From the IMG/VR virus record IMGVR_UViG_3300033074_002003: 64,000 nucleotides of DNA. One strand, 5' to 3'. Shown in pieces: positions 47,703-64,000 of the stretch. Numbering within the stretch: the first letter of the stretch is position 1; every line of letters begins with the position of its first letter. The position numbers were made by a program, and so were the translations under genes. A model generated the notes under the pieces. It did not search any database. It worked only from the letters and a program-made list of their open reading frames with translations, and was not told where the DNA came from. Source of the DNA: a virus.

Positions 47703-47846
47703 TGAATCCTCCTGGGCGGCACCTCGCCGCCATGACTCCGTTATACATCGACTCCCACACTCGGACACGCGATCGCGTCTGAAAGTGACTTTCAACCGGT
47801 GTAACCGCGAGTTCACAGTTGCGTCCCGCGTGACATCTCGGACGGG

Positions 47847-47858
47847 TGGATATAGAGT
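47847..47858 (+). promoter_or_regulatory. extended -10 TGGATATAGAGT, 6 nt before ATG of 47865 (leaderless)
   Basis: recurrent motif class. Confidence 0.4.
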
Positions 47859-47864
47859 CGGACC

Positions 47865-48383: not shown

Positions 48384-48410
48384 GTCCGGTCGCGCGTGAA
48401 GCCACTGCCA

Positions 48411-48424
48411 CGGTGGTTTAGATT
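48411..48424 (+). promoter_or_regulatory. putative -10 GGTGGTTTAGATT with structured leader (hairpin GGCGG-TAATGCACT-CCGCC) and SD AAGGAGAGAGAAC
   Basis: upstream of 48476 gene. Confidence 0.3.
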
Positions 48425-48475
48425 GATGTTGTCAGGCGGTAATGCACTCCGCCGGAGAGACCAAGGAGAGAGAAC

Positions 48476-48775
48476 ATGGCCATCACGGACAAGCCCAAGT
48501 ACGGTTCGAAGAGCAGCCCCGATCCCGAGAAGCGCCACTTCTTCAAGTGGGCCGGCGAGAAGTCGGGCGAGGGCATCGGCACCTGCATGCACTGCGGCCT
48601 GCAGATGAAGTTCGAGGAGAACGGCGCGCGGGGCGGGAAGCACCGCGTGTACAAGAAGAAGGGCGAGCGCGCCTGGTCCGAGAAGGAGACCCAGTGCGTC
48701 GCCCGCTCGCGGTCGCTCGCCCTCGCGGCGAAGGAGCCGAAGCCCGCCAAGAAGGCGGCGAAGAAGGCCGCCTGA
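48476..48775 (+). CDS. small basic Cys/His protein (putative zinc-binding), paralog of 58764..59039
   Basis: shared H.FKW.....G.GIG.C.HC...LKF.ENG.RGGKHR.Y; Lys/Ala-rich tail. Confidence 0.55.
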   Translation: MAITDKPKYGSKSSPDPEKRHFFKWAGEKSGEGIGTCMHCGLQMKFEENGARGGKHRVYKKKGERAWSEKETQCVARSRSLALAAKEPKPAKKAAKKAA

Positions 48776-48915: not shown

Positions 48916-49036
48916 CAAAAAAAGCGGTGAACACCCGGGCTGTGCGCCATATACTATCTCTTGCGGGGTAGTGTACAGAGCACGTGCAGCCTCATAAGCT
49001 CACAGACCGAGGGGCAGCTCCCGGCGACCGCACCCA

Positions 49037-51668: not shown

Positions 51669-53121
51669 CGTGTCACCCTCGAGCGAGGGTGATACTGTCG
51701 GGGGTATGAGCGACACCGACGACGGTGAGAAGAAGTGGTCGCCCCTCTCGAACGACGCCTTCTTCGTGAAGGGCAAGAAGATCGAGCCGGCTAACACCAC
51801 GCACGTGAGGCAGCGTCTCGACGATTACCTCGTGAAGCTGTACATCGACGAGCCCTTCTGGGCGCGGCTCTCCGCACACACCTCGAAGGTGATCACCCGT
51901 GCCATCCCGACTGCCGCTGCGACGTGGCACCAGGGCGGGTTCATCATGATGTTCAACCCCGATTTCATCGGTGGCCTCGACTCTGCCGGGAGGCGAGAAG
52001 AGGTCTACGGGGTGATCAAGCACGAGCTCTCGCACATCGGATTCGGCCACCTTGGTTCTCGGTACTACCCCGATGACATCGAGGAGCAGGTGAAGAAGAT
52101 GAACCCCGACGAGTACAGGGCGTTCGAGAGGAGGAAGAAGATCCTGCAGGCCGCGACGGACTCCGCGATCAACACCCTCCTCCTCGACGACGGGGAGATG
52201 AACGGCAAGAAGTGCGAGCTGCCTGGCGCGCCCTGGGTTCCCGGGCTCCGTCCCGGGACGCCGCTCGATCCCGTGAAGGACCCGCTGAACCCGCTCCAGG
52301 CGCTGAGGCTGGCTCTGCCTCCGTCCCCGTTCGACGAGGCCGTGATGGGTGCAGAGAAGCTCCAGTCGACGGACTACTACTACCAGCTCTATGACAAGTT
52401 CATTGCCGAGAGCGATGGCGAGGGCGGAGCCGGGACCGATTCCCACGACATGTGGGGGACGGGCTCGAAGCGGATGATCGAGGTCGAGGCGAGGCGCATC
52501 CTGAAGGACGCGGTGAAGGAGGGAGAGGGCCGCGGGTGGGGGACAGTCCCCATGAGGATGCGAACCATCCTCAGGCAGATGGTCTCCAACGAGGTGAACT
52601 GGCAGGACCGCCTGCGACAGTGGATCGGGATCAACGGCGACCCTGCGACACGCTTCAGGACCCGCAGGCGCGTCGACCGCAAGTACCCGGGTCTCTTCCC
52701 CGGCGTGAAGCGGCAGCGCGGCGTTCGCGTTGCGGTCGCGATCGATCAGAGCGCGTCTGTTCACGACGCGCTGCTCACCCGGCTCCTCGCCGTCATCGGT
52801 GGACTCTCAGAGGTCGCCACCGTCACCCTCATCCCCTTCGACACTGCGGTCGTCGAGGAGAGGATCGAGGCGCTCACTGTCGGGCAGCAGCCGTCGTTCG
52901 AGCGCGTCGCCTGCGGAGGGACGGACTTCGATTGCATCACCGGGTGGGTGAACATGCCGAAAAACGAGAACGTGTTCGATGTCCTCATCATCGCGACCGA
53001 CGGTGAAGCTGCACGCCCGCAGGCGTGTCGGATCCCGCGTGTCTGGGTCATCGGTCCGGGCTGCAAGCTCCACTTCGAAACCGACGAAGAGGTCATCCAG
53101 CTCAGCGACGAGACGGTGTAA
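51649..53121 (+). CDS. VWA-domain protein with N-terminal putative zincin-like domain (DUF2201-like), MoxR partner
   Basis: HELSHIGFGH (HExxH-like), MIDAS DQSAS in RVAVAIDQSASVHD. Confidence 0.6.
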   Translation: MSLLEPDVSPSSEGDTVGGMSDTDDGEKKWSPLSNDAFFVKGKKIEPANTTHVRQRLDDYLVKLYIDEPFWARLSAHTSKVITRAIPTAAATWHQGGFIMMFNPDFIGGLDSAGRREEVYGVIKHELSHIGFGHLGSRYYPDDIEEQVKKMNPDEYRAFERRKKILQAATDSAINTLLLDDGEMNGKKCELPGAPWVPGLRPGTPLDPVKDPLNPLQALRLALPPSPFDEAVMGAEKLQSTDYYYQLYDKFIAESDGEGGAGTDSHDMWGTGSKRMIEVEARRILKDAVKEGEGRGWGTVPMRMRTILRQMVSNEVNWQDRLRQWIGINGDPATRFRTRRRVDRKYPGLFPGVKRQRGVRVAVAIDQSASVHDALLTRLLAVIGGLSEVATVTLIPFDTAVVEERIEALTVGQQPSFERVACGGTDFDCITGWVNMPKNENVFDVLIIATDGEAARPQACRIPRVWVIGPGCKLHFETDEEVIQLSDETV

Positions 53122-53198
53122 CCCACACGGGACCGTGGTAGAGTCTCTCTAGTTGCCGCCGCCGAATTACCTGCGGCCGCTAACTCGGAGAGTGTCCC

Positions 53199-53753
53199 AT
53201 GGCCAAGCGTGTCGTCACGAGTCACCTTTCACCGATCGTCGCCGCTGCCGTCACCGACGGGCTGCAGGAGCTGAAGCGCTCCTCACACGTGATGGTGTGG
53301 GGAGTCCTGAAGCGGGTTGAGGCGTTCTGCAGCCGAGAGATCGCGAAGCTGCGTCCCTCCGTCGACGAGTGGGTTACGGGGGAGCTCGGGAAGCTCGATC
53401 CCGGCGAGTACGAGCGGGTGGTGAAGCTACCCAATAACCTGGTGGTGCACCTGCGCAACCGGAACGCGAAGGCGAAGGTCGTCCTCGAGGGACCCGCGAA
53501 GGCGCTCCTGCGCGCGAAGCGCGTGTCCCAGGAGTCCATCCTCACGGCGGTGTCGGAACCCGTGCGCGCCTTCGATCCGGAGAAGATCGAGGCGCTGGTC
53601 GCGATCGGGAAGGTCACGCGGGCCGAGGCAGACGCGGTGCTCGCTCCCGCGCCCGTCGCCCCCGAGCTGCACGTGAAGTCGTACCCGGGGCTCGAGGAAC
53701 ACATCGCGGTGTCGGTGATGGCGTTTGCCGAAGCCACCCGGCGCGGGCGGTAA
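53199..53753 (+). CDS. hypothetical protein
   Basis: ORF track 184 aa. Confidence 0.5.
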   Translation: MAKRVVTSHLSPIVAAAVTDGLQELKRSSHVMVWGVLKRVEAFCSREIAKLRPSVDEWVTGELGKLDPGEYERVVKLPNNLVVHLRNRNAKAKVVLEGPAKALLRAKRVSQESILTAVSEPVRAFDPEKIEALVAIGKVTRAEADAVLAPAPVAPELHVKSYPGLEEHIAVSVMAFAEATRRGR

Positions 53754-53775
53754 GCGCGTGAATCCTTGCCGCTCG

Positions 53776-53786
53776 TGGGATATAAC
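53776..53786 (+). promoter_or_regulatory. -10 element TGGGATATAAC, 6 nt before ATG 53793 (leaderless)
   Basis: motif class. Confidence 0.4.
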
Positions 53787-53792
53787 AGTCTC

Positions 53793-54122
53793 ATGAGCGG
53801 CACCGATATCACAGACGAGATCTGCGAGTCCGAGAATCCGGGACCGAACGTCCACCCGTTTTGGGTGGACACGGTTCGTCAGCAGATGGAAGAACGGTTG
53901 CGGCGTATTCGCCCCACCGATCACGACGCCGACAGGTTCAACGTGATGGTCGATGCACAGATTCGTGCGCACGAGTCTTCTGACGAAGAGCTGCTCGCCC
54001 TGCGCGAGAACGCGCGCCGAACGATGGTGTTGCACCCCGACGCGGAAGCGCAGGTGCGTGCCTACCTTCGCGAAGGTGTGTATGATAGAGACATCATCCG
54101 CAGGAAGATGGCGATCCGATGA
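53793..54122 (+). CDS. hypothetical protein
   Basis: internal Met MSGTDITDE preferred because of leaderless promoter. Confidence 0.45.
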   Translation: MSGTDITDEICESENPGPNVHPFWVDTVRQQMEERLRRIRPTDHDADRFNVMVDAQIRAHESSDEELLALRENARRTMVLHPDAEAQVRAYLREGVYDRDIIRRKMAIR

Positions 54123-54475
54123 GGGACATCGTTCGAATCTGCAACGAAATCAAGGAAGCCACGCTGCACGAAAAAGCGTGGGGGACAGCGTTCTGGAAGT
54201 TCGAAGAAGAGGCGGTTCGCCTGGGACTTGCTGTTACGGCAAAGTCCGACGATCCATCTGCGTGTGCAGAGGTGCGCGAGCTGTTGCTTATCGCAATCGA
54301 GCGCGTCGACTTCCTGAGGAGCTACACACGCGAAGAGTTGTACGCTCTCCATGATGCTGCGGCTCGCGACATGAGAGAGAAGACAGACGCTCGAGAGCGC
54401 GTGATCGCATTCCACGTCGCGCGATTTTATCTCATGAAGGTGTTCAACCTGGGCGTGAAGGAGTATCCGAGATGA
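54119..54475 (+). CDS. hypothetical protein
   Basis: ATGA coupling. Confidence 0.45.
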   Translation: MRDIVRICNEIKEATLHEKAWGTAFWKFEEEAVRLGLAVTAKSDDPSACAEVRELLLIAIERVDFLRSYTREELYALHDAAARDMREKTDARERVIAFHVARFYLMKVFNLGVKEYPR

Positions 54476-54684
54476 TCAATGCAATCTGGTACGGTGATCC
54501 GCCCGAGAAGTGCGACACGTGCGAGTCGCCCATCACCGACGAGTTCGTCGACGGTCGAACTGTGGGTGGCGTCTGGGCGTGCATGTGCAAGCGCTGCCAT
54601 GGGATGTTCGGGCACGGCCTGGGCACGGGCAAGGGACAGCGCTACAAGCTCGTCGACGGGAAGTTCGTGAAAGCGGAGGGATGA
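54472..54684 (+). CDS. small zinc-ribbon protein
   Basis: CDTC...CMCKRCHG; ATGA coupling. Confidence 0.45.
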   Translation: MINAIWYGDPPEKCDTCESPITDEFVDGRTVGGVWACMCKRCHGMFGHGLGTGKGQRYKLVDGKFVKAEG

Positions 54685-54881
54685 TGCTCGCGATCACACC
54701 GAGGCAGGCGACGATCCTCACCCACCTCGCTGCAGGGCTCGTGAAGAAAGAGATCGCCGAGGAGCTGGACATCACCACCGACACGGTGAAGTTCCACCTC
54801 ACCGTCATCCGCCGGCGCCTCTGCGCGAAGAACGCTGCACACGCTGTCGCGATCGCCGTCAGGAAGGGAATCATAGCGTGA
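54681..54881 (+). CDS. LuxR/GerE-type HTH transcriptional regulator (66 aa)
   Basis: LTPRQ..IL..LA.G...KEIA..L.I...TVK.HL..I..KL...N...A pattern; GGAGG SD; ATGA overlap. Confidence 0.55.
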   Translation: MMLAITPRQATILTHLAAGLVKKEIAEELDITTDTVKFHLTVIRRRLCAKNAAHAVAIAVRKGIIA

Positions 54882-55297
54882 GCGTGCGGACGAAGCCGTT
54901 CGAGGACGCGGTCATCAAGGGATTCCACGATCCCAACGGGCTCCTCGTGTTCGATTACCAACCCGGGAACGGGACGCGGTACGTGATCTCGATCACGACG
55001 CTCGACGAGGTGTCACCCGAGGCCCGCGACCTCATGGGCCTCAAGTTCGACACCGTCGGGATGCTGTGCCTCCACAACATGGGATCGCACCGCTGGCTCG
55101 AGGTGCCGGACAGCCGCGGGACCCTGATGCTCTCTGACGTCATCAGGCAGCTCGGCCTCGAGAAACACGTGTCAGACGCCGTCGTGGTCGCCGAGTTCGC
55201 TGCGCACGTCTGCAAGTGCTACCTCTCGCACCCCGCCAACGAGGAAACCGTCCGCCAGTTCGTGAACGCGCGTGACCCCGACATGTCCGGGTGGTAG
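54878..55297 (+). CDS. hypothetical protein
   Basis: ORF track 139 aa. Confidence 0.45.
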   Translation: MSVRTKPFEDAVIKGFHDPNGLLVFDYQPGNGTRYVISITTLDEVSPEARDLMGLKFDTVGMLCLHNMGSHRWLEVPDSRGTLMLSDVIRQLGLEKHVSDAVVVAEFAAHVCKCYLSHPANEETVRQFVNARDPDMSGW

Positions 55298-55300
55298 AGT
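55292..55300 (+). promoter_or_regulatory. extended -10 TGGTAGAGT, 6 nt before ATG 55307 (leaderless)
   Basis: motif class. Confidence 0.45.
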
Positions 55301-55306
55301 CTACTC

Positions 55307-55789
55307 ATGGCAAACAACGAACCCCGGATGCTCTTCGCTCTCCCGTCCATCGAGTGCGCTGCACTCTGGGAGGCCTTCTGTGTGGGACAGCTCTCGGACG
55401 GCTACTGGGAGGGTGCACGCCCGCTGCATCACTGGGTGCCGTGGTGCTCCGCGCGTGTGGTGGTCGACGCCGTCCGTCCCGGTCGCGAGGGCGCGTACGT
55501 CCCGCGTGACAAGTACGCGCTCGACAACAAGGAGCTCATGGAGATCCTCGGGTTCGAGATGCAGTACTTCCTCGGGCTCGTGCGCAAGTACCCGGGGCAC
55601 GCGCTCGTCCTCCCCAAGTGGGACCTGCCGCGCAGCCCATCATGTCACGCGGAGATGAACGCGGACCCGGGCAGCAAGTTCGGTGCCCTCGGGCTCGCTC
55701 CGCTGTCACCGAGTGAGGTGCCCTCGCTCCTCGAGGTGAAGAAGGTGCTGCGCGCCATCAAGCTCGCGATGCGCACCCCTCGCGTGTAG
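55307..55789 (+). CDS. hypothetical protein
   Basis: ORF track 160 aa. Confidence 0.5.
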   Translation: MANNEPRMLFALPSIECAALWEAFCVGQLSDGYWEGARPLHHWVPWCSARVVVDAVRPGREGAYVPRDKYALDNKELMEILGFEMQYFLGLVRKYPGHALVLPKWDLPRSPSCHAEMNADPGSKFGALGLAPLSPSEVPSLLEVKKVLRAIKLAMRTPRV

Positions 55790-55835
55790 TTCGACAACGG
55801 GTGGGATACATTCAGCTCTAGGAAGGCAGGAAACC

Positions 55836-56291
55836 ATGAAGAAGATGATGATGCTCGCGCTCGTGTTGTGTGCAGTCGGTTGCGGTGCGGCGGTGGAGGC
55901 GCCCCCGATCTCGACGAGCGACACCGGATCGTCCCCCACGGACACGGGCCCGCCCATCGCGGTGGACACGGGTGCGGCCGACACCTCCCCCGAGGTCGCA
56001 GTCGACGCGGGTCCCAGCCTCGGGTGCACCGCGTACCCGAAGGAGGACAACACGATCTCGTGCAGCTTCGAGGCCGCGGCGGGCGCCGCCTACTACGCGG
56101 AGGCGCGCGACAGCGAGTTCGGAGCCATCGTCCCGGCGCTGGTGGAGTCGCGCGTGTGCGACCTCGACGGCTGCACCGAGTTCGAGGCGGTGTTCACCGA
56201 GGCGACCCCCACCGAGGGTCGGAAGGTCCGGACGGACGTGACCCCGCGTGCCTCCACCCGGCTCGTCACGGTGAAGTGGTCCGCCTGGTAG
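55836..56291 (+). CDS. putative lipoprotein
   Basis: MKKMMMLALVLCAVGCG lipobox; SD GGAAGG. Confidence 0.55.
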   Translation: MKKMMMLALVLCAVGCGAAVEAPPISTSDTGSSPTDTGPPIAVDTGAADTSPEVAVDAGPSLGCTAYPKEDNTISCSFEAAAGAAYYAEARDSEFGAIVPALVESRVCDLDGCTEFEAVFTEATPTEGRKVRTDVTPRASTRLVTVKWSAW

Positions 56292-56317
56292 CGCTCGCGT
56301 GACTGGGTTTCCCCACA

Positions 56318-56327
56318 GGGATATAAC
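56318..56327 (+). promoter_or_regulatory. -10 GGGATATAAC with 18-nt leader containing SD GGAGAGA
   Basis: upstream of 56346. Confidence 0.35.
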
Positions 56328-56345
56328 TGGAAGTAGGAGAGACCC

Positions 56346-57074
56346 ATGGACGAAAAACTGAAGTCGGTCATCGAGAAGATCAACAAGCTCCGCGCGCTCG
56401 CCACGAGCTCAAACCCACACGAGGCCGCCTCGGCGGCGGCCCGTGCTGCGGCTCTCATCGACGAGCACCAGCTCTCGGAGGCCCAGCTGGAAGCTGTGGA
56501 GAACCGCGAGTCACCTCAGGTCGCGGACGATCCGATCCTTCGCGGGAAGGTGATGTCACAGTGGAAGGTGTGGCTCGTTCACGGGCTCGCCGAACACTTC
56601 GGTGTCTACTCGATCCGGCAGGTTCGTCGTGGGGGCGAGGACGACATCAAGCTCACGGGCCGCGCTCGTGACGTGGAGATCGTCCGGTACTTCTTCACGT
56701 GGCTCTCTGCCGAGGTGGAGCGCCTGTGCAGGGCGAACAAGCCCCCGAGCTGTGGGATGAAGTGGACCGTCACGTACCGCAACGGCGTGTCGCACGGGAT
56801 CTGCGTGAAGCTCAAGGAGATGAAGCGCGCCGAGGTGGCTGCACGCGTGTCCACGTCAGCGGCGATGGTGTACCTCGACTCGCGGTTCGCCCTCGCGCGT
56901 GAGGTGTACGTGAAGTCGATGGCGCCGGGACACCGTGTCGTTGCCACGAAGGGCTGCTACGGCTCCGATCTCAACGCCTTCAACCAGGGCGTGCGTGACG
57001 GCAAGGCGATCAACCTCGGTGCCCAGCTAGGAGGCGGCGACGGGTCGAGCGCGGGACCACGACTCATGCGGTGA
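56346..57074 (+). CDS. hypothetical protein with DUF2786-like N-terminus
   Basis: KINKLRALATSSNPHEAASAAARAAALIDEH pattern. Confidence 0.5.
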   Translation: MDEKLKSVIEKINKLRALATSSNPHEAASAAARAAALIDEHQLSEAQLEAVENRESPQVADDPILRGKVMSQWKVWLVHGLAEHFGVYSIRQVRRGGEDDIKLTGRARDVEIVRYFFTWLSAEVERLCRANKPPSCGMKWTVTYRNGVSHGICVKLKEMKRAEVAARVSTSAAMVYLDSRFALAREVYVKSMAPGHRVVATKGCYGSDLNAFNQGVRDGKAINLGAQLGGGDGSSAGPRLMR

Positions 57075-57494
57075 CTCCCTCTCGTGAGCGGGTTACAACA
57101 TACTTACAGAGAGGAACGAACCCATGTCCAAGAACACTGCCAAGAAGCCGCGCGATACGGTCCTCCGGGACGAGCTGATGCACTGCAAGTCGGGTGGCCC
57201 GATGCGCGACCGCCGGGAGCGCCGCGCGAAGGAGAAGAAGCACGCGTGGAAGAAGGAAGAGCTCTGATGTTCGGCTTCGACCCCGACGTCGTGTTCGCCT
57301 TCGCTCCCATCGTCGGGGGCGCGGGGTACCTCGTCCTCGAGGGGATCGTGGCCGCCTGGGAGTACATGGCACTCTAGGGTGTGCCTCGCGGCTGACTTGA
57401 GAGCACACTTTGTGCCCGGGATGGGTTCCTATACCTCCCGGGCACAGTGCTTTTCTACGAGGTTCTGTGGGTCGCGTGTAATCGCGGGTGCCGC

Positions 57495-57502
57495 GGTATA
57501 CA
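57495..57502 (+). promoter_or_regulatory. -10 GGTATACA, 8 nt before ATG 57511 (leaderless)
   Basis: motif class. Confidence 0.35.
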
Positions 57503-57510
57503 CTGTCGAT

Positions 57511-57810
57511 ATGGCAAAGCGAATCGATGTCCTCGTTGGTAACGCGACCCTGCTCGTGCGTGAGGTCCCGGGGGAGCACTCGACCCTGAAAGACGACGGC
57601 GAGCGGGCGGAAAACCGCCTCTTGCGTGCTGTGGCGAGGTGGTACGGCTTTCCCGTGAAGGGCGTGTGGCGGTGCGGTACCCTCGTGGCGATCGACATCG
57701 ATTGCGGTGACGACTACGAGCTCTGCTCGCAGTGCAACCGCGATCACGAGTACGATGGGCACGGTCCCGAGTGCGCCCGTGATATCAATGACGCGGTGGA
57801 GTATAACTGA
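57511..57810 (+). CDS. hypothetical protein
   Basis: MAKRIDVLVGN; Cys-rich C-term. Confidence 0.45.
   Translation: MAKRIDVLVGNATLLVREVPGEHSTLKDDGERAENRLLRAVARWYGFPVKGVWRCGTLVAIDIDCGDDYELCSQCNRDHEYDGHGPECARDINDAVEYN
57797..57807 (+). promoter_or_regulatory. extended -10 TGGAGTATAAC, 6 nt before ATG 57814 (inside 3-prime end of previous CDS)
   Basis: motif class. Confidence 0.4.
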
Positions 57811-57813
57811 GTC

Positions 57814-58077
57814 ATGGACAAGGCAACCACCCAGAAGTTCCTCGAAGCGTGGATCGCGTACACGGGCTTCTCGCCCGGTAGTGTGAAGGACATCCGCGTC
57901 GAGGAGGACCCGATGTACAAGGGTACGTACGCCGGCCGCGTCGATGTGGGCGATCCGAAGCCCTTCGACTTCATGGTCACCGGGTGCAACCCGGTCACGA
58001 TGACGACCGACGCGATCGCCGACCTCATCGAGGAGTGCGAGTTCGTCGCGTTCCCACCTCGCGTGCGGGGTCGGTGA
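57814..58077 (+). CDS. hypothetical protein
   Basis: ORF track 87 aa. Confidence 0.45.
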   Translation: MDKATTQKFLEAWIAYTGFSPGSVKDIRVEEDPMYKGTYAGRVDVGDPKPFDFMVTGCNPVTMTTDAIADLIEECEFVAFPPRVRGR

Positions 58078-58274
58078 TGCCCCTCGAGGCCATCACGCTC
58101 GCGCAACTGCGGGATCGCAACCGCGGCGCGTTCAGTCGCATGCCCGCGAAACTCGCTCGCGCCTCCTTCCTCACGGACGGGAAGAACGTGTCTGCCACCC
58201 TCCCGGAGTCCACCCACGTATGGACGGGCCGGAAGTGGGTGGTCGCGCGTGATAGCGGATCGGAAACGAAGTAG
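58077..58274 (+). CDS. hypothetical small protein
   Basis: TGATG overlap; MPLEAITLAQL. Confidence 0.35.
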   Translation: MPLEAITLAQLRDRNRGAFSRMPAKLARASFLTDGKNVSATLPESTHVWTGRKWVVARDSGSETK

Positions 58275-58277
58275 AGT
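58271..58277 (+). promoter_or_regulatory. -10 GTAGAGT with leader SD GGAGAGAG before ATG 58297
   Basis: parallels 56318 element. Confidence 0.35.
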
Positions 58278-58296
58278 GGGAAGTAGGAGAGAGCAC

Positions 58297-58674
58297 ATGG
58301 ACCCGAAACTCGGAATCGAAATCACCAACGAGGACATCACGTTCGCCGACGGGATCGACGACTCCGACGGCTGTCGCCCACCGCTCGCAGAAGAGGTCGA
58401 GCTGCACGCGTGCACTCGCGATCCCGACTGGCTCCTCGCCCTCCTCATCGCGGAGATCGCGCGTGGCGCTCTGAAACATGGCGATCCCGACGTGACACCT
58501 CGCCAGATGCGGTGGATCGTCGCCACAGAGATCGGTGCACTCGAGAGTGCACTTGCGGAACACGTTCGAGACTTCTACACGCGGGTGAACGACGATATCG
58601 GGCGTGTCAAGGCCCACAACACGAGCTTCTCCGGGGGGACGAAGGGGGAGGAAAAAGAATGCGAAGACGCGTGA
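58297..58674 (+). CDS. hypothetical protein
   Basis: MDPKLGIEITNED; 125 aa. Confidence 0.45.
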   Translation: MDPKLGIEITNEDITFADGIDDSDGCRPPLAEEVELHACTRDPDWLLALLIAEIARGALKHGDPDVTPRQMRWIVATEIGALESALAEHVRDFYTRVNDDIGRVKAHNTSFSGGTKGEEKECEDA

Positions 58675-58763
58675 GGTTCGGCGCACGGTGAGATAAAACT
58701 AGATCATCAGGTGGGAACAACCACCGAGAACACCAACCAAGTTACGAAGGAAGAGAGAACACC

Positions 58764-59039
58764 ATGTCCAAGAGCACCAAGACCACTGCCAAGAAGCCCG
58801 TCACCCGCTACGGCGCGAAGACCGCCCCCGGGAAGGGTCACTCGTTCAAGTGGGAGGAGGCCCCCGGCGTCGGCATCGGGGTCTGCAGCCACTGCACCGC
58901 GAAGCTGAAGTTCGTCGAGAACGGCCCGCGCGGCGGCAAGCACCGCATGTACTGGCATGCCGGTGTCGACGGGGCGAAGGGCAAGTGGCTCCCGGAGGAG
59001 CCCAAGTGCAAGCGCGAGCCGGCCTCCAAGGCGGCCTGA
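58764..59039 (+). CDS. small basic Cys/His protein, paralog of 48476..48775
   Basis: conserved HSFKWEEAPGVGIGVCSHC...KFVENGPRGGKHRMY; leader hairpin GGTGG-GAACAA-CCACC; SD GAAGGAAGAGAG. Confidence 0.55.
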   Translation: MSKSTKTTAKKPVTRYGAKTAPGKGHSFKWEEAPGVGIGVCSHCTAKLKFVENGPRGGKHRMYWHAGVDGAKGKWLPEEPKCKREPASKAA

Positions 59040-59051
59040 CGCACTCCCACT

Positions 59052-59085
59052 GTCGGGTGGCGGCTCACACGGGTCGCCACCCGAC
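59052..59085 (+). terminator. strong 13-bp GC-rich hairpin (GTCGGGTGGCGGC...GTCGCCACCCGAC) without U-tract
   Basis: 12 nt after stop of 58764..59039, immediately upstream of tRNA-Met. Confidence 0.5.
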
Positions 59086-59095
59086 ACGCGTCTCA

Positions 59096-59169
59096 GGGCA
59101 CATAGCTCAAGAGGTTAGAGCTGTCGCCTCATATGCGATCGGTTCCGGGTTCGAGTCCTGGTGTGCCCA
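59096..59169 (+). tRNA. tRNA-Met or Ile2 (CAT)
   Basis: acceptor GGGCACA/TGTGCCC, D-arm GCTC..GAGC, anticodon loop CTCATAT, T-arm CCGGG-TTCGAGT-CCTGG. Confidence 0.8.
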
Positions 59170-59658
59170 CTGTAACAGCCCGTTGTCTAGTTCCCAATGG
59201 TGATTTGGACACAGGATTGCGATATTCGATTCAGCGTTGACGACGCTAAGTCGTGTGTCGAGATCAAAAGACGCAATTCCTTTGATGTGTGCAAATTCGA
59301 CGTGTTTGTCGTATGCACAAATCATACATTTGCGAGGAAGATGATCGTTCCACCGACGAGCGTAATAACGAACTGGTGACCACTTCTGATGTGAACTGAC
59401 ATTTTCTCTTTTGCACTTGTCAGCATAATATCGAAGCGTGAGATTGCGCGCGCGTCTGTCACTGTCCAGACATTCAACGACGCACTTGCTACAGAATCGT
59501 GTTTTGTTCGTTAGAGTACGTTTGAACTCGACTTTACACTCGTGACAAATACGTGTCGGTGCTCTCTTTGGACTGTTGAAGAGAGCGGCACACTTGCAGT
59601 TACAGAATTTGCGTGCTAGATTAGTCAGGGGTGTGTTACAGTATACGCACTTTTTCAC
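59107..59658 (-). CDS. HNH homing endonuclease (AT-rich)
   Basis: Cys-rich N-term; HNH core CMICAYDKHVEFAHIKG...NIAILCPNHHWELDNG; ORF 3-prime end runs into tRNA-Met. Confidence 0.75.
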   Translation of the reverse strand: MKKCVYCNTPLTNLARKFCNCKCAALFNSPKRAPTRICHECKVEFKRTLTNKTRFCSKCVVECLDSDRRARNLTLRYYADKCKRENVSSHQKWSPVRYYARRWNDHLPRKCMICAYDKHVEFAHIKGIASFDLDTRLSVVNAESNIAILCPNHHWELDNGLLQWAHQDSNPEPIAYEATALTS

Positions 59659-59723
59659 TCTCTGACTTTACAGATATTTTGTCATTTGTAACGGTGTGCC
59701 CACACGTGTTCCCAAGTTCGCTG

Positions 59724-59734
59724 TGGTGTAGAGT
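59724..59734 (+). promoter_or_regulatory. extended -10 TGGTGTAGAGT followed by conserved leader TATCTCAAGGAGCAAGGAAC-ATG
   Basis: near-identical copy at 60131. Confidence 0.45.
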
Positions 59735-59754
59735 TATCTCAAGGAGCAAGGAAC

Positions 59755-60099
59755 ATGGCAATCTTCACCGCCCCCGCGAACTGGAAGGAAAACGAGCGCT
59801 GGTTCGACGACGCGGGCAAGGGCCAGCGAGAGGCGTTCGTGAAGCAGTTCTGCAAGGCCACGTTCACCTTCGGCGGGCAGACGCTTGTCATCATCTCGTA
59901 CCCCCGGAACGACGGGAAGGATGTCACCGTGTTCGATCTGGACTCGGGTGATGTGTACGAGATGCCCATCGAGGACGTGTTCGAGTGCAAGCAGACACGT
60001 CCCACGGAACGCTCCGACTACGAGTTTTCGCACGTCTGGAACTCGCGTGTCTGTGTGGAGGCCGAGGACATCGCGATCCTCCTCTTCGAGGAAGAGTGA
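59755..60099 (+). CDS. hypothetical protein
   Basis: ORF track 114 aa; SD AAGGAG. Confidence 0.5.
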   Translation: MAIFTAPANWKENERWFDDAGKGQREAFVKQFCKATFTFGGQTLVIISYPRNDGKDVTVFDLDSGDVYEMPIEDVFECKQTRPTERSDYEFSHVWNSRVCVEAEDIAILLFEEE

Positions 60100-60130
60100 G
60101 CGAGCCCGCGTGCCACTGATCTCACCGCGG

Positions 60131-60138
60131 TGTAGAGT
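60131..60138 (+). promoter_or_regulatory. -10 TGTAGAGT followed by conserved leader AATCTCAAGGAGCGAGGAAC-ATG
   Basis: duplicate of 59724 element. Confidence 0.45.
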
Positions 60139-60158
60139 AATCTCAAGGAGCGAGGAAC

Positions 60159-60539
60159 ATGAGCAACTTCGAACTTCTGGGCAGCATCTCGGCCTCCATC
60201 GCGGGTGACCACCGCTACACTGATCGCCTCGAGATCCTCATCAACACCGAGGAGAAGCTCGTGCGTGTCACCGTGAGCGGTACCGTCGCCTCGGGCGGTA
60301 TCGACGGTCCTGGTGGCGCGAACGCTCCCAACGAACACGCGCGGAGCGAGCACCCGCTCTCCGACGTCGCCGGGATCGCGAGGGCAGTGTCAGCCCACTT
60401 GAAGTCCTCGCGCTTCAACTTCCACCAGTATGGGAAGCCGACGAAGCGGTTCTATTGGTCGAGCTCCCTCGACGGCGCTGTGGCACCCGGATGGTCCGGC
60501 GCGAAGCTCCGCGAGGCGATCAAGGGATTCACCGCGTGA
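60159..60539 (+). CDS. hypothetical protein
   Basis: ORF track 126 aa. Confidence 0.5.
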   Translation: MSNFELLGSISASIAGDHRYTDRLEILINTEEKLVRVTVSGTVASGGIDGPGGANAPNEHARSEHPLSDVAGIARAVSAHLKSSRFNFHQYGKPTKRFYWSSSLDGAVAPGWSGAKLREAIKGFTA

Positions 60540-60733
60540 ACAGGGACTCGGGAGGTCGCCCGATCAGGTTGGGCGACCTCGTCCGCAACGAGTTCGGTGT
60601 CATCGTTGCGCTGGGACCCACTACCACTTCGACCGGCTTGCGACTCGAATTCTTCTACTTGCCGTACTCTCGCACGGAACGGATTCGTACGGCATCACCC
60701 AGCATGTTCGGGAAGCGGGTCATCGCTCGCTGA
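60535..60733 (+). CDS. array-family small protein, solitary plus-strand copy (GTG start, GTGA overlap)
   Basis: VNRDSGGRPIRLGDLVRNEFGVIVALG...GKRVIAR. Confidence 0.55.
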
Positions 60734-60757
60734 GACGCGTGCAGACCCGGCGCTCGG

Positions 60758-60767
60758 GTGGTAGAGT
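60758..60767 (+). promoter_or_regulatory. extended -10 GTGGTAGAGT, 6 nt before ATG 60774
   Basis: motif class. Confidence 0.45.
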
Positions 60768-60773
60768 CTCATC

Positions 60774-61085
60774 ATGGACAGCAACAAGGTTCCGAAGGGC
60801 TTCAAAAAGTGGAGCTACGGCACCGCCGATTGGGTGCACCTGGGATCAGGCGAGATCATTGCACCCGATCCGAAGCGCGCACAGGAGATACACGAGGAAT
60901 GGCTCGTCGATGAGGCTCGTCGCCTTGGGTTCTGGATCGAGCGGCAGCTCCCTGCGTGTATCGAGAAGCTGGCACGCGAACCGTCGCTCGACATCCACAT
61001 CGACGAGTTCGGGTTCAAGTTGCACGCGAGGATGGTTGACGGCACCCTCGTCGTCACGAGTGACTTCGATCGCATGGAAGGATAG
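60774..61085 (+). CDS. hypothetical protein
   Basis: ORF track 103 aa. Confidence 0.5.
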   Translation: MDSNKVPKGFKKWSYGTADWVHLGSGEIIAPDPKRAQEIHEEWLVDEARRLGFWIERQLPACIEKLAREPSLDIHIDEFGFKLHARMVDGTLVVTSDFDRMEG

Positions 61086-61088
61086 AGT
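61080..61088 (+). promoter_or_regulatory. -10 GGATAGAGT, 6 nt before ATG 61095
   Basis: motif class; inside end of previous CDS. Confidence 0.4.
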
Positions 61089-61094
61089 ACTCTC

Positions 61095-61364
61095 ATGGCC
61101 GACATGAACAACACGATGGTAGTCATCAGGGCGAACGGGTCTCGCGGGTCGATTTCGCCGACCTGGGACGCTGCGAAGGCGGCGCTCGGTGGCGCGATGA
61201 TCGAGGTCGTCTACTTGAGAGGTGGTGCGGTGTTGCTCGTCGACGAGGAGGGACTCTTGAAGTCGCTCGACTTGAACATCGTCGCGACGAACATCGCGGG
61301 CCACGAGATCGTGGGGGATGCCGTGATGGTGCCCAAGGAGCTCGTCACCGCGGTGCTCGACTGA
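61095..61364 (+). CDS. hypothetical protein
   Basis: ORF track 89 aa. Confidence 0.45.
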   Translation: MADMNNTMVVIRANGSRGSISPTWDAAKAALGGAMIEVVYLRGGAVLLVDEEGLLKSLDLNIVATNIAGHEIVGDAVMVPKELVTAVLD

Positions 61365-61690
61365 TGTGCGACCACGGAACAGTTGGGTGCACCCGATTCT
61401 GCAGGTGCGAGCTCTGCGTGCGTGACGGGATCGCGTGGCTCGCGGCGTCGATCGCTAGGCGAGCAGTGCTCGGACCTTCGCACACTTCAGGGGCGATCGC
61501 GTACGCGCAGCGCATCCTCAGGCGCGATCGGGTCGACGATGCTGTGCAGACGGACAAAGAACCCGAGGCAATGACGGGCAGCGAACACTCGCGCCTCGAG
61601 CGCCGCCGAGCGACGAAGAGGAAGTGGCAGGATGCACGTGGGAAGAAGAGGCGAAAGGGCTTCTCCCAGTTCAAGCGAGCCGCTGCGTAA
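61364..61690 (+). CDS. hypothetical Cys-rich basic protein
   Basis: TGATG overlap; CDHGTVGCTRFCRCELC. Confidence 0.45.
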   Translation: MCDHGTVGCTRFCRCELCVRDGIAWLAASIARRAVLGPSHTSGAIAYAQRILRRDRVDDAVQTDKEPEAMTGSEHSRLERRRATKRKWQDARGKKRRKGFSQFKRAAA

Positions 61691-61729
61691 TCCCGTGCAA
61701 CGACTGACCAGAAAGGATAGATTGGGAAC

Positions 61730-62008
61730 ATGAACAAGCTCACCACCTCCAAGCGCAAGCCCGGTCGTCCCGCCCGCTTCCTCTTCATCAAGACGGCACG
61801 AGGCCGCGACTTCTACCTCGACCGGAAGCACTCGGTTTTTTACAGCGTGCCGGCCCACGGGATCTGCACCGAGCGCTCGAGGCGCGAGGGGTACGTGCAG
61901 GCCGAGCACTCGCGCGAGGAACAGTACGCGACCGCACTTTCGCTCGCCCGTGCTGCTCATCGCCTCGGGTTCCTCACGGCGACGACGTTCTACCAACTCG
62001 CGGTCTGA
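61730..62008 (+). CDS. hypothetical protein
   Basis: ORF track 92 aa. Confidence 0.45.
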   Translation: MNKLTTSKRKPGRPARFLFIKTARGRDFYLDRKHSVFYSVPAHGICTERSRREGYVQAEHSREEQYATALSLARAAHRLGFLTATTFYQLAV

Positions 62009-62014
62009 GCGCGA

Positions 62015-62088
62015 GTGCTCGTAGCTCAGTTGGATAGAGCAGCGGCCTTCTAAGCCGCCGGTCGCCCGTTCGAGTCGGGCCGGGCACA
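62015..62088 (+). tRNA. tRNA-Arg (TCT)
   Basis: acceptor GTGCTCG/CGGGCAC, D-arm GCTCAGTTGGATAGAGC, anticodon loop CTTCTAA, T-arm GCCCG-TTCGAGT-CGGGC. Confidence 0.8.
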
Positions 62089-62099
62089 CGGAGAAAAAG

Positions 62100-62303
62100 A
62101 TGCAGCACAAACTCAACACCGTGAAGCCCGGTGATCGCTTCAGGGCACAGAACGGTTCGATCGTGAAGGTCATGGAGGTGGACGGGTGGAAACGCCCGGC
62201 TGTGTACGTCACATACACGTACGAGTTCGACTCCACCACCAAGTGGGAGCGCACGGAGCGCGCCTTCCTCTCCCGCTTCACCCCCATCGAACCCTCGCCG
62301 TGA
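62100..62303 (+). CDS. hypothetical protein
   Basis: SD GGAGAAAAAG before ATG. Confidence 0.4.
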   Translation: MQHKLNTVKPGDRFRAQNGSIVKVMEVDGWKRPAVYVTYTYEFDSTTKWERTERAFLSRFTPIEPSP

Positions 62304-62367
62304 CCCGCTCGGGCCCTTCGGGACCCGGGATGGGTTCCCCTACCACCCGCACCAAAGTGAACCCACA

Positions 62368-62562
62368 GTGACCCTCGCGACCCATCCGTACCACTGCTTC
62401 TTCATCGTCGTGCTCGTGACCCTTGGTCACCTCCTCGGTGGGCTCAAGGGCGCCGAGATCGCGCTCGTGTCCATCCTGTCGCTGATGCTCATCATGCGCT
62501 GGTTCGTCCTCCTGCACGCGTGGTGGGAGGAACGCAAGTTCCGTCGCACGCGCAGCTGGTGA
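62368..62562 (+). CDS. small membrane protein
   Basis: two hydrophobic segments. Confidence 0.4.
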   Translation: MTLATHPYHCFFIVVLVTLGHLLGGLKGAEIALVSILSLMLIMRWFVLLHAWWEERKFRRTRSW

Positions 62563-62576
62563 CATCGCACCCGCGC

Positions 62577-62587
62577 GGGTGTAGAGT
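62577..62587 (+). promoter_or_regulatory. -10 GGGTGTAGAGT, 6 nt before ATG 62594
   Basis: motif class. Confidence 0.45.
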
Positions 62588-62593
62588 CTACCC

Positions 62594-62902
62594 ATGGCAC
62601 ACAAGCAAGTCACCATGGCGAAGGCGATCGAGTACGGGTATCCCATCGGGCGCCTCATGGAGGCACTCATCATCGATCGATACGAGTTCGTGAGTGTCGA
62701 CGAGGACGCCATCACCGTGCGTCTGGTCGAACCCGAGACTGCTGTCGAATCGATCGAGACGACCCTCACCGAGTCGGGTGTCATCAAGCCCACGGCCCAC
62801 ATGCCGGGTTGGTACGAGCTCGACTGTGACGAGGGCATGCTCCGCGTGACCATCGAAAACTTCGGGGCGATGTTCACGTTCTTCTGCCTCGACGAGAGGT
62901 GA
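62594..62902 (+). CDS. hypothetical protein
   Basis: ORF track 102 aa. Confidence 0.5.
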   Translation: MAHKQVTMAKAIEYGYPIGRLMEALIIDRYEFVSVDEDAITVRLVEPETAVESIETTLTESGVIKPTAHMPGWYELDCDEGMLRVTIENFGAMFTFFCLDER

Positions 62903-62917
62903 CAGCCGCTCGCGAGT

Positions 62918-62927
62918 GGGATAGGAT
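62918..62927 (+). promoter_or_regulatory. -10 GGGATAGGAT, 6 nt before ATG 62934
   Basis: motif class variant. Confidence 0.35.
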
Positions 62928-62933
62928 CGTCTC

Positions 62934-63173
62934 ATGTTGAAACTGGTTGGTCGCGGCGTGTTCGCGGCAGACGTGCAGTGTGTCCAACTCATCGACACGG
63001 GAACAGACAAGCTCGATCGCTTTCTGAGTGATCTAGAAGACCTCATGCGGGCTGTCCCGTACTCCAGCTCACGGGATCGCGAAAGGGACTCGCGGCGCAT
63101 CAGTCGAATCAGGCGGTCTGTCGAGCTCCTCCGCGAGGAGATGCGTGACTTCCGCACGAACTTCCCGAAGTAG
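62934..63173 (+). CDS. hypothetical protein
   Basis: ORF track 79 aa. Confidence 0.45.
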   Translation: MLKLVGRGVFAADVQCVQLIDTGTDKLDRFLSDLEDLMRAVPYSSSRDRERDSRRISRIRRSVELLREEMRDFRTNFPK

Positions 63174-63210
63174 CGAGTCGCTTCGCATCTCGTGAAGGCG
63201 AGCGACGGGT

Positions 63211-63220
63211 GAGATAGAGT
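63211..63220 (+). promoter_or_regulatory. -10 GAGATAGAGT, 7 nt before ATG 63228
   Basis: motif class. Confidence 0.4.
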
Positions 63221-63227
63221 CTCGATC

Positions 63228-63476
63228 ATGGCCTACACCACCCGGCAGTTCACCATCACCACCGTCGACCTCGCTGGACACTCTCTGGGCGCTCCCATCA
63301 CGTACGTCGTCCACTCGCTGTACAACGCGAAGGGCGAGGTCGCGGACTGGATCGACGTGAAGGGGATGGACGACGAGGACGAGTTCCGCGAAGATCTCGA
63401 GGACTGGGACGGGATCGAGTCCCTGACACTGGAGAACGGCGACGGTGAGTCGATCACCGTCGAAGAAATCAAGTAG
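63228..63476 (+). CDS. hypothetical acidic protein
   Basis: ORF track 82 aa. Confidence 0.45.
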   Translation: MAYTTRQFTITTVDLAGHSLGAPITYVVHSLYNAKGEVADWIDVKGMDDEDEFREDLEDWDGIESLTLENGDGESITVEEIK

Positions 63477-63515
63477 ACGAGTGACTATCTGACGGGGAAG
63501 GATATACTCTCGATC

Positions 63516-63731
63516 ATGGACAACAACGACGTCACCCACCTGTTCTCCAACGACATCGTCACCCAGTTCCGCGGGGTGGACTGCTAGGCCGTTGGCTTCG
63601 TGCGCCGATATGACTACGAGCATCCCGACGGTCGTGCGGTGAGCTGTCACACGGGCTCGAGCAGCGACTACTGGGTCGCGGGTGACAAGCGCGGGTACTG
63701 GGGCGAGCTCGAGTCCTGGTGCAAGTCACAG
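63516..63731 (+). other. 71-codon reading frame interrupted by a single in-frame TAG at about 63585 (MDNNDVTHLFSNDIVTQFRGVDC*AVGFVRRYDYEHPDGRAVSC...)
   Basis: preceded by -10 GGATATACT + 7 nt + ATG; downstream segment keeps high-GC3 coding look. Confidence 0.3.
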
Positions 63732-63753
63732 TGATCTGGGATACAAGAAGATC

Positions 63754-64000
63754 ATGAGCGAGTTGCAAGCACACTACGAGATGATGCGGACGGGTTGTTG
63801 GGCCGATGCCGACGAGTCACACTGCCCGTGTGGTGGACGCGGATACGCCCTCTCTGAGGTGGATACCTGGCACGAGTGCCCGATCCATCACGTCACGGGC
63901 CAGCACCACCCTGAGGACGAGTGCGACTGTGGTGAGATCCCGTGTGTCTCATTCTCTACTCCCACGGTTCCCGTGATGGTGCCGGCGGTTCCCACGTCCT
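63754..64000 (+). CDS. hypothetical Cys/His-rich protein (partial, runs off window)
   Basis: MSELQAHYEMMRTGCWADADESHCPCGGRGY...; no stop before 64000. Confidence 0.4.
   Translation, partial: MSELQAHYEMMRTGCWADADESHCPCGGRGYALSEVDTWHECPIHHVTGQHHPEDECDCGEIPCVSFSTPTVPVMVPAVPTS

Follow-up and report, generated by a model that had tools for sequence, protein, structure and literature searches.

Leaderless gene expression, in which the transcript opens with the start codon itself, was reportedly described in mycobacteria by Shell and colleagues in 2015. In the Deinococcus-Thermus group it proceeds from a TANNNT hexamer located a few base pairs before the AUG, with no Shine-Dalgarno (SD) sequence, and a -35 element placed 17 bp upstream boosts it (PMC12340547). 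Here we describe a bipartite element in a 64,000-nucleotide stretch of viral DNA (IMG/VR record IMGVR_UViG_3300033074_002003), referred to below as the window. In its consensus module, cgcGTG(A/T)(C/A)N is followed by 17 nt that are G-rich at the 3' end, by TA(G/T)A(G/A)T and, after 6-7 nt, by ATG, and the element recurs through a dense array of small genes. We consider it quite probable that these modules form a family of sigma-70-type promoters, and that most of the units they head would yield leaderless transcripts. The leaderless promoters of Deinococcus-Thermus hosts mostly lack a recognizable -35 (PMC12340547), whereas nearly all of the phage sites have one, led by GTG. Leaderless genes of hosts are scattered over the chromosome, whereas the phage units are packed in an array.

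Leaderless messages are also known from phages. phiYS40 has an AT-rich genome of about 152 kb. Most of the middle and late mRNAs of this Thermus thermophilus phage are leaderless, according to the summary in PMC3594737 (Sevostyanova et al. 2007). As far as that summary goes, the two cases have in common a large phage, leaderless mRNAs for a temporal class, and a host-type RNA polymerase, in our case predicted from sequence; the array described here, however, would appear to be accessory or early rather than a set of structural late genes, and searches of GenBank phages gave no sequence relationship between phiYS40 and this phage. In T4-type phages, promoter-early stem-loop (PeSL) cassettes are composite terminator and promoter elements of hyperplastic regions (PMC2839356, PMC4122927). 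Our array likewise has short conserved promoter motifs beside many small orphan genes, in a region that is hypervariable, and the indel junctions of close relatives lie in the motifs, which points to accessory-gene shuffling; but our modules have no stem-loop, T4 early genes have SD leaders, and both the host phylum and the promoter consensus differ. Among giant phages, phiKZ has no leaderless transcript (PMC8244752), and the untranslated regions of AR9 measure 26-491 nt (PMC5312081). The present phage resembles these two in its giant genome and in having many promoters of one class for a block of small genes, but theirs are single AT-rich blocks read by their own multisubunit RNA polymerases, whereas those described here are bipartite, of the sigma-70 type and, by prediction, mostly leaderless; no RNA polymerase subunit gene was found in the window. 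In mycobacteriophages, the start-associated sequence of Cluster K (GGGATAGGAGCCC) contains an SD, and the stoperators of Cluster A are single 13-bp repressor sites. These repeats are likewise many oriented short motifs beside gene starts, in phages of high-GC hosts, but they are neither bipartite with a 17-bp spacer nor set at the -10-to-+1 distance from an ATG.

Our literature searches found no description of a comparable phage array. Leaderless expression from a -10 adjacent to an open reading frame (ORF) in hosts, leaderless phage mRNAs, and promoter-cassette shuffling in T4-type phages are all known already; what is new is the combination: about 55 single-gene units, mostly leaderless by prediction, that are densely packed, vary between strains, have an unusual GTG -35 and belong to a novel lineage of jumbo phages.

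Anatomy and conservation of the element

The original prediction held that at least 14 plus-strand genes of the window are preceded by a -10 motif ending 6-8 nt before the ATG, a recurrence that proved to be understated. All of the sites it named are real, each carrying a TA(G/T)A(G/A/C)(T/C)-type hexamer just before the ATG of an accepted ORF, although two had to be re-registered, from 57497 to TACACT at 57499 and from 63741 to TACAAG at 63742. With this correction, 6 or 7 nt separate hexamer and ATG in all 13 plus-strand leaderless examples, and the minus-strand site before 27375 is built the same way (hexamer at 27387, gap 6 or 7 nt). An ATG this close to the hexamer leaves no room for an SD, as had been claimed. 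A second class with short leaders was also described, and leaders of 18-20 nt with GGAGAG or AAGGAG are indeed present at 56322, 58272, 59729 and 60133; the fifth proposed member, at 8632, has 44 nt.

Enrichment over shuffled sequence holds, as judged from 200 dinucleotide-preserving shuffles of the window. On the plus strand, TA[GT]A[GAC][TC]-N6-7-ATG occurs 16 times where 1.33 are expected (shuffle maximum 5), and within 47.8-64 kb it occurs nine times where 0.26 are expected. When the sites are aligned on the hexamer, (c)g(c)GTG(A/T)(C/A)N emerges as another conserved block, separated from the -10 by exactly 17 nt. GTGA-N19-TA[GT]A is found 12 times on the plus strand (0.81 expected), and the fuller GTGA-N19-TAnnn[TC]-N6-7-ATG eight times (0.09 expected). 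From 25 sites we built a position weight matrix (PWM) of 16.7 bits in two blocks, one of 9 nt around the -35 and one of 12 nt that closes with the -10. At a threshold of at least 14 bits it detects 24 plus-strand and six minus-strand sites in the window, where the shuffles give 0.33 for each strand. Plus-strand sites added to the earlier list are 48419, 53139, 55807, 57094, 58694 and 61718; minus-strand sites lie at 27387, 33049, 46810 and 47745. Because the matrix stops at the hexamer and includes nothing downstream, the distance to the ATG tests it independently. Among 63 non-redundant sites of at least 13 bits, drawn from the window and related contigs, the ATG follows at 6 nt in 37 and at 7 nt in 12, and the remaining 14 are followed by AGGAG-type leaders.

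The pattern of constraint is best seen in 35 independent sites. In the -10 hexamer, T1 and A2 are present in all 35, A4 in 31 and T6 in 33; training sites with T6 replaced have C (53781, 56322, 57094, 57802, 58694) or G (63742). A G stands two bases before the hexamer in 32 of the 35, and the two bases after it are mostly CT (28 and 27 of 35). The -35 reads GTG in every case, its first base always G, with C conserved at two positions before it (-24 and -26 relative to the hexamer); it matches TTGACA at up to five of six positions, the initial G being the departure from consensus. Between the two blocks the sequence is otherwise free, yet the spacing is nearly fixed: 56 of 57 sites of a single genome have 17 bp, as do all but two of the 25 seed sites, which have 16 and 18. 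This combination of fixed T1, A2, A4 and T6, a G two bases before the -10, and a -35 at 17 bp across a free spacer is a pattern that a sigma-70-family holoenzyme would read.

Two trivial readings of the conserved blocks were rejected. Genes and promoters are tightly packed, the stop codon of the preceding gene often lying inside the next promoter, as the TAG of the -10 at 55295 and 61083 or the TGA of the -35 at 57071, 62559 and 62899. Retention of GTGA merely as an upstream stop codon would fit the latter three, only a part of the sites; it fails at those with GTGCAG, GTGCAA, GTGCCA and GTGTCT, and the upstream C and the G that precedes TGA show conservation of their own. The near-palindrome TAGAGTCTA(C) is no better explained as a hairpin or terminator (folding z about 0), and promoter regions in general contain no significant hairpins, folding like their shuffles (z = +0.1 and -0.2).

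The element also extends to sequence outside the PWM training. About 30 sites of a merged genome (see below), and more than 30 in contigs L116 and L243, lie beyond the window end. A distant syntenic relative, the 209,695-bp contig L121 (GC 56.5%, MoxR 45% identical), has GTG(T/A)(A/C)A-N17-TA....-N6-ATG at the starts of many of its small genes, whichever strand they lie on, and another relative, L122 (54% identical), has the same promoter architecture. In 39 allelic promoter pairs, both members of which scored at least 9 bits, substitutions per site number 0.021 in the -35, 0.026 in the -10, 0.066 in the spacer and 0.094-0.106 in the coding flanks; that is, the hexamers change three to five times more slowly than the spacer and flanks.

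The array, its predicted transcripts and its rearrangements

The array occupies about 22 kb of the plus strand and holds about 55 small genes, nearly all of them orphans; it continues some 11.5 kb past the window end. Merging contigs L109 and L243 gave 30,640 bp of one genome, in which the PWM at a cut-off of at least 12 bits finds 57 plus-strand and four minus-strand matches. Forty-four of the 57 are leaderless-type, with the ATG at 6-7 nt, ten have SD leaders of 18-64 nt, and three are of other kinds. Units follow one another every 400-500 bp or so, and the last promoter of the array stands at position 28,833 of the merged sequence, ahead of a minus-strand gene. The part inside the window (53.1-64 kb) has 29 genes: 12 leaderless-type, eight with a promoter and an SD leader, and nine without a promoter of their own. 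The last group includes operon-internal genes, which have SDs and start codons overlapping the upstream stop codon, and one gene that follows a tRNA. Window genes were called with an iterated codon model that replaced a noisier caller based only on third-position GC content (GC3), and the gene calls precomputed for identical contigs also accept the ORFs opened by the ATGs in question.

After the 6-7-nt gap the start codon is ATG in all 44-49 cases and never GTG or TTG; among all called window genes, GTG and TTG account for 59 of 133 starts (44%). The gap itself has no complementarity to the 3' tail of 16S rRNA, the anti-SD. The coding sequence usually opens ATGGAC: 27 of 49 proteins begin M-D, and 14 of them M-D-N (ATGGACAAC). 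Aspartate at position 2 is outside the eight commonest residues of 119 control genes, and thus occurs in fewer than six of them. A paralogous family was considered as the source of the shared M-D-N N-termini and rejected, since all-against-all blastp returns allelic pairs only. The array proteins being mutually unrelated, the shared start must be a feature at the nucleotide level. It may reflect the initial transcribed sequence, the efficiency of leaderless translation, or co-transfer with the promoter.

Several array starts are misplaced both by the caller used here and by the precomputed calls (53766 instead of 53793 in the window, 12097 against 12058 in L116, 17075 against 17024 in L109), because a true leaderless ATG has no SD. 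Standard gene callers that seek an SD can therefore be expected to mis-start several genes of the array.

Canonical terminators are not enriched (nine found, 8.8 expected), and the window part of the array has two strong hairpins only. On the plus strand, a double hairpin at 57378..57447 is followed by CTTTTC (z = -5.5) and is the sole terminator-like structure there; a GC hairpin without a U tract lies at 59051..59087, between gene 58764-59039 and a tRNA-Met gene (z = -5.8). The suggestion that U-less hairpins serve as terminators thus applies to a single real structure, and the other strong hairpin has its CTTTTC. Given that terminators are not enriched and strong hairpins so few, transcripts probably read through. 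The loop motif of the first hairpin, GGGATGGGTTCC, recurs near 62328 and in the relative L122. We also noted a longer motif, CCCGGGATGGGTTCC(T/C)(A/C)TACC, after small genes at 57415-57440, 62325-62345 and about 6160-6190 of L122; it comprises loop and stem of hairpin 57378-57447, is conserved in that relative despite protein identity of 54%, and may be a terminator or a small RNA element.

Contigs that are otherwise near-identical differ by whole-gene indels. Four of them (L110, L115, L117 and L119) have an extra 102-aa gene between two copies of a 51-bp module (window 57771-57821); another, L111, lacks gene 59755-60099 and has a hybrid of the 59706 and 60110 modules; and window gene 62934 is a fusion with its recombination junction 10-14 nt after the ATG. 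With scaffold gaps excluded, there are 48 distinct junction contexts, which are not independent events; 19 of them map between -35 and +30 relative to the start of a hexamer, and such zones make up 13% of the sequence. Junctions are thus enriched roughly threefold in the modules. The conserved 50-bp promoter-start module, to judge from these comparisons, probably serves also as homology for the gain, loss and swap of cassettes between strains. The leaderless gene at 63516-63734 has an in-frame TAG at 63585-63587, right at a recombination junction (63586-63590), as it does in L116 and L120, and represents either a truncated chimera or the coding sequence of a 23-aa product.

Individual sites, all on the plus strand unless noted, are as follows. 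The array begins with a leadered promoter at 53116..53201 (GTGTAA-N17-TAGAGT, 54-nt leader, gene 53199-53753; 15.5 bits). The leaderless module at 53758..53795 (GTGAAT-N17-TATAAC-N6-ATG; 24.5 bits) heads a five-gene operon, 53793-55297, that includes a GerE-like gene at 54681-54881; the GerE protein is conserved in L122 and is a candidate regulator of the promoter class. There follow a leaderless module at 55272..55309 (GTGACC-N17-TAGAGT-N6-ATG) and three leadered promoters, at 55784..55838 (GTGTAG-N17-TACATT, 23-nt SD leader), 56299..56348 (GTGACT-N17-TATAAC, 18-nt leader with GTAGGAGAGA, before a DUF2786/DUF7168 gene) and 57071..57126 (GTGACT-N17-TACAAC, 24-nt SD leader). Leaderless modules at 57476..57513 (GTGTAA-N17-TACACT-N6-ATG) and 57779..57816 (GTGATA-N17-TATAAC-N6-ATG) precede a run of leadered promoters at 58249..58299 (GTGATA-N17-TAGAGT, 19-nt leader with GTAGGAGAGAG), 58671..58766 (GTGAGG-N17-TAAAAC, 64-nt leader), 59706..59757 (GTGTTC-N17-TAGAGT, 20-nt leader with CAAGGAGC) and 60110..60161 (GTGCCA-N17-TAGAGT, 20-nt leader), the last two being near-duplicates. 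The further modules up to the window end are of the leaderless type: 60739..60776 (GTGCAG-N17-TAGAGT-N6-ATG), 61060..61097 (GTGACT-N17-TAGAGT-N6-ATG, upstream of a DUF3846 gene), 61695..61732 (GTGCAA-N17-TAGATT-N6-ATG, not in the earlier list), 62559..62596 (GTGACA-N17-TAGAGT-N6-ATG), 62899..62936 (GTGACA-N17-TAGGAT-N6-ATG), 63192..63230 (GTGAAG-N17-TAGAGT-N7-ATG), 63481..63518 (GTGACT-N16-TATACT-N7-ATGGACAAC) and 63719..63756 (GTGCAA-N17-TACAAG-N6-ATG).

Sites also occur outside the array. A leaderless module at 47830..47867 (GTGACA-N17-TAGAGT-N6-ATG, gene 47865-48383; 22.8 bits) diverges from a minus-strand leadered promoter at 47700..47768 (GTGTCC-N17-TATAAC, 37-nt AGGAGG leader) that precedes a KaiC/RecA-like ATPase gene. 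It is followed by a leadered promoter at 48396..48478 (GTGAAG-N17-TAGATT, 51-nt leader with the SD GGAGAGAGA, gene 48476-48775; 23.1 bits) and by a promoter at 48927..48955 (GTGAAC-N17-TATACT) between a tRNA-Tyr gene and an endonuclease I-like gene. Farther out lie a leaderless module at 7994..8033 (GTGATA-N18-TAGAGT-N7-ATG) and a leadered promoter at 8609..8684 (GTGCAT-N17-TATAGT, 44-nt leader). The minus strand has a leaderless module at 27373..27410 (GTGAAC-N17-TATAAT-N6-ATG) and a module at 46794..46833 (GTGCTT-N17-TAAGGT-N8-ATG). TAGAGT-N7-ATG at 4470..4508 (hexamer 4493) is a weak candidate, without a recognizable -35 and with a leave-one-out PWM score of -3.6.

What reads the modules

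We suggest the following course of events. A bacterial RNA polymerase holoenzyme most likely reads the promoters, its sigma being probably the host primary factor, possibly a phage-modified or phage-encoded relative of it, and one promoter would drive each gene or short operon along the array. With the last T of the hexamer at -7 and a gap of 6 nt, the A of the ATG falls at +1 and the transcript would open with AUG. Roughly three quarters of the units have their ATG 6-7 nt after the -10, where this predicted start would lie; the remaining units have short SD leaders. Since there is no room for an SD and the ATG sits at the usual start distance of RNA polymerase, a leaderless message is the most economical reading. 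An mRNA beginning with AUG could be translated without an SD, by binding of 70S ribosomes or fMet-tRNA-dependent binding to the 5' AUG, and the exclusive use of ATG, the lack of SD room, and the presence of SDs in operon-internal genes all fit the need of leaderless translation for a 5' AUG. Because internal ATGs have no SD and terminators are rare, the output of each protein would be set mainly by the gene's own promoter. The original prediction called these genes a regulon; the term is reasonable in the sense of one promoter class, and co-regulation would be conjecture.

Several points weigh against this scheme. The transcript starts are deduced from promoter geometry, and the host is presumed able to translate leaderless mRNA. 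Sites of the original prediction served as the seed of the PWM, and the allele comparison, in which both alleles had to reach the score threshold, is open to ascertainment bias. The -35 opens with an invariant G, giving GTG where the primary-sigma consensus has TTG, and promoter-like sequences upstream of tmRNA (transfer-messenger RNA) genes in candidate Micrococcales hosts read TTGAC by eye; the polymerase or sigma may therefore differ from the plain host one. Finally, a simple promoter model has no need of the CT conserved behind the hexamer or of the ATGGAC(AAC) start, and these could reflect another function or a module spread by recombination.

The unusual -35 lends itself to an explanation in which the architecture is the same but is read by a phage-encoded or phage-modified sigma or co-factor, with cgcGTG as the specificity determinant. 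We regard this as a serious but minority possibility, and we are equally tentative about the candidates for such a factor: a sigma appropriator, or a sigma-region-4-like or LuxR-type helix-turn-helix (HTH) protein such as the GerE protein of the array. The invariance of GTG in 35 of 35 sites, together with the C at -24 and -26, its retention in the relative with 45% identity, and the TTGAC rather than GTGAC upstream of Micrococcales tmRNAs all speak for a dedicated factor, and so does the GerE protein: encoded in the first leaderless operon, it is a stand-alone LuxR/GerE HTH of 66 aa (Pfam 1.5e-14) that also matches Sigma70_r4_2 (1.4e-4) and the PHROG 'sigma factor' family (2e-12). However, the 128 window proteins include no sigma region 2 and no RNA polymerase subunit, and if the genes are early, they need whatever is present at infection. 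Moreover, GTGACA agrees with TTGACA at five of six positions, the spacing is optimal and the -10 is a standard TAnnnT, so that an ordinary primary sigma should accept these promoters.

Two other readings dispense with promoter function as the main role of the repeats. They might be protein-binding operators or start-associated signals that control elongation or translation; the many copies in one orientation, in short intergenic gaps beside start codons, would suit such a role, as would the near-palindromic TAGAGTCTA and the conservation beyond a minimal promoter, in the CT after the hexamer and the GAC after the ATG. We think this very unlikely, because a bipartite element with a variable 17-nt spacer and only T1, A2, A4 and T6 fixed downstream bears the signature of sigma recognition rather than that of an HTH operator, the ATG lies as far away as +1 from a -10, and the same element stands before SD leaders of 18-64 nt, independent of the position of the start codon; nor do the modules have an SD, complementarity to the 16S 3' tail, or significant hairpins. 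Alternatively, the modules might be integron- or PeSL-like recombination repeats at cassette junctions, their likeness to promoters being secondary. Gene content does differ among near-identical strains, 19 of 48 junction contexts fall in 13% of the sequence, and the extra gene between module copies in L115 and the hybrid module left by a deletion in L111 would agree with this. Homology alone, though, leaves unexplained the invariant T1, A2 and T6, the variable spacer and the exact 6-7 nt to the ATG; most module pairs, differing in their spacers, are too dissimilar for efficient homologous exchange; and the element also occurs singly elsewhere (8018, 27387, 47853) and before tRNA genes. We give this account very little credence, and the recombination role is better taken as a consequence of promoter function than as an alternative to it.

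A dual purpose for the 50-bp module (cgcGTGAnn-N17-TAGAGT-CTnnnC-ATGGAC) is a bolder idea, and one we hold to be unlikely: the module would be at once a specialized promoter, its invariant GTG -35 read by a phage-redirected sigma and thereby insulated from host regulation, and an integron-like 'plug-and-play' recombination joint. An ORF captured at its ATG would then gain transcription and SD-independent translation in a single step, which would explain the upkeep of about 55 unrelated, strain-variable, single-gene leaderless units.

If the sigma-70-type, mostly leaderless reading is correct, this would be, as far as our literature searches show, the first jumbo phage with a whole accessory region of one-gene leaderless units, and its likely host would be narrowed to lineages adept with leaderless mRNA. 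The array would also offer a portable expression module of about 50 bp for high-GC bacteria that needs no ribosome-binding site, and a natural series of about 60 promoter variants with which to study recognition of a G-led -35. In a larger context, promoter-mediated cassette shuffling would reach beyond the T4-type coliphages to an unrelated phage lineage.

Host, genome and neighboring genes

The region belongs to an uncultured phage. Exact-protein matching located it on a 305,889-bp metagenome contig from ENA (ERZ4198739 NODE_15) and on many shorter, near-identical contigs from JGI, ENA and Logan assemblies, and one array protein is also encoded on a contig of 329,329 bp. These two lengths point to a jumbo phage of about 306-329 kb, of which the sequence analyzed here, the 64-kb window and about 20 kb of flank, is a part of the ~306-kb genome. 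Among 50,697 GenBank phage records, megablast and tblastn returned no DNA relative other than tRNA and generic GroEL matches; nor do GenBank phages hold close protein relatives, the GroEL-like and VWA proteins having distant matches only. Scanning IMG/VR for the exact 14-mer GGGTGGTAGAGTCT gave single, seemingly random matches and no multi-copy locus, and a scan of genome contigs gave no relative of MoxR. No Pfam match exists for 120 of the 128 window proteins. Those that can be identified include GroEL, a MoxR-type AAA ATPase with its VWA partner, an RNA ligase and a protein like T7 endonuclease I; the RNA genes of the window are six tRNAs and one tmRNA.

The Mycobacterium-, Gordonia- or Streptomyces-like host proposed at the outset is unsupported: the GenBank phages, which include thousands of actinophages, contain no DNA relative or close protein relative, searches with the GroEL and VWA proteins returned no actinophage, and the 128 window proteins include no WhiB or other actinophage marker. 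The ORF-adjacent -10 had been offered as a hallmark of Actinobacteria, but it is equally a hallmark of Deinococcus-Thermus (PMC12340547). The phage GroEL is equidistant from the GroELs of E. coli, Thermus and M. tuberculosis in PDB and so carries no host signal.

A weak host signal comes from the tmRNA gene. It lies at 49964-50362, after a cluster of four tRNAs (Tyr, Phe, Met and Arg-CCT), and encodes a one-piece molecule (Rfam 96.8 bits) with the tag ANDNGTSLALAA coded at 96-134 and, close to the 3' end, an extra stretch of about 50 nt that the Rfam model lacks. Its 5' end, GGGGGTGA-NN-GGTTTCGACGG, has the 2-nt gap seen in tmRNAs of Micrococcales, and both the 12-aa length and the position of the tag are as in that order (e.g., ANSKRTDFALAA at 95-133). 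Of about 100 tmRNAs retrieved, the six that align best over their whole length all come from Micrococcales (Ca. Phosphoribacter, Cellulomonas, Dermatophilaceae, Lapillicoccus and Terrabacter), although their lead over Myxococcus (tag ANDNVELALAA) and Bdellovibrionota is narrow, at 65.5 to 61, high GC confounds the comparison, and the search pattern could not retrieve tmRNAs of Deinococcota. Against phages and plasmids, blastn of the tmRNA matched the T-arm only. On the strength of this Micrococcales-like tmRNA we weakly favor a host in the Actinomycetota, with nothing more specific, a call about as likely to be wrong as right; a host in the Deinococcota is possible.

The phage genome is compositionally heterogeneous. 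Overall GC rises from about 0.57 over positions 1-44000 to 0.62-0.65 over 45600-64000, and GC3 is 0.83-0.95 in genes of the 45.6-64 kb segment against about 0.70 in the rest of the window. A full-length GroEL-type chaperonin is encoded at 24254-25906 (Cpn60_TCP1, 5e-70), with a TTG start in the gene calls made here, and is at most 48% identical to any GenBank phage protein. An AT-rich island at 59171-59692, directly after the tRNA-Met gene at 59096-59170, coincides with a minus-strand HNH endonuclease ORF at 59107-59658 (Pfam HNH_2, 3.8e-5) and is flanked by the 11-bp direct repeat GGTGTGCCCAC; its absence from L109, L110 and L115-L120 suggests that it is probably a recently inserted homing element.

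The minus-strand block at 27800-44600 has about 45 small genes whose start context is unlike that of the promoter array. In most of them GGGTGATC stands 2-4 nt before an ATG or GTG, an SD that pairs with GAUCACC of the 16S tail, and the whole of this stretch, about 17 kb, has just four promoter matches of at least 13 bits. Many of these genes also have in common the coding motif (R/F)VGDL(V/I), some 10-15 codons in and spelled GGAGACCT, an 8-mer with 18 copies in the window where 2.2 are expected. The block looks like a tandem family of paralogous small proteins.

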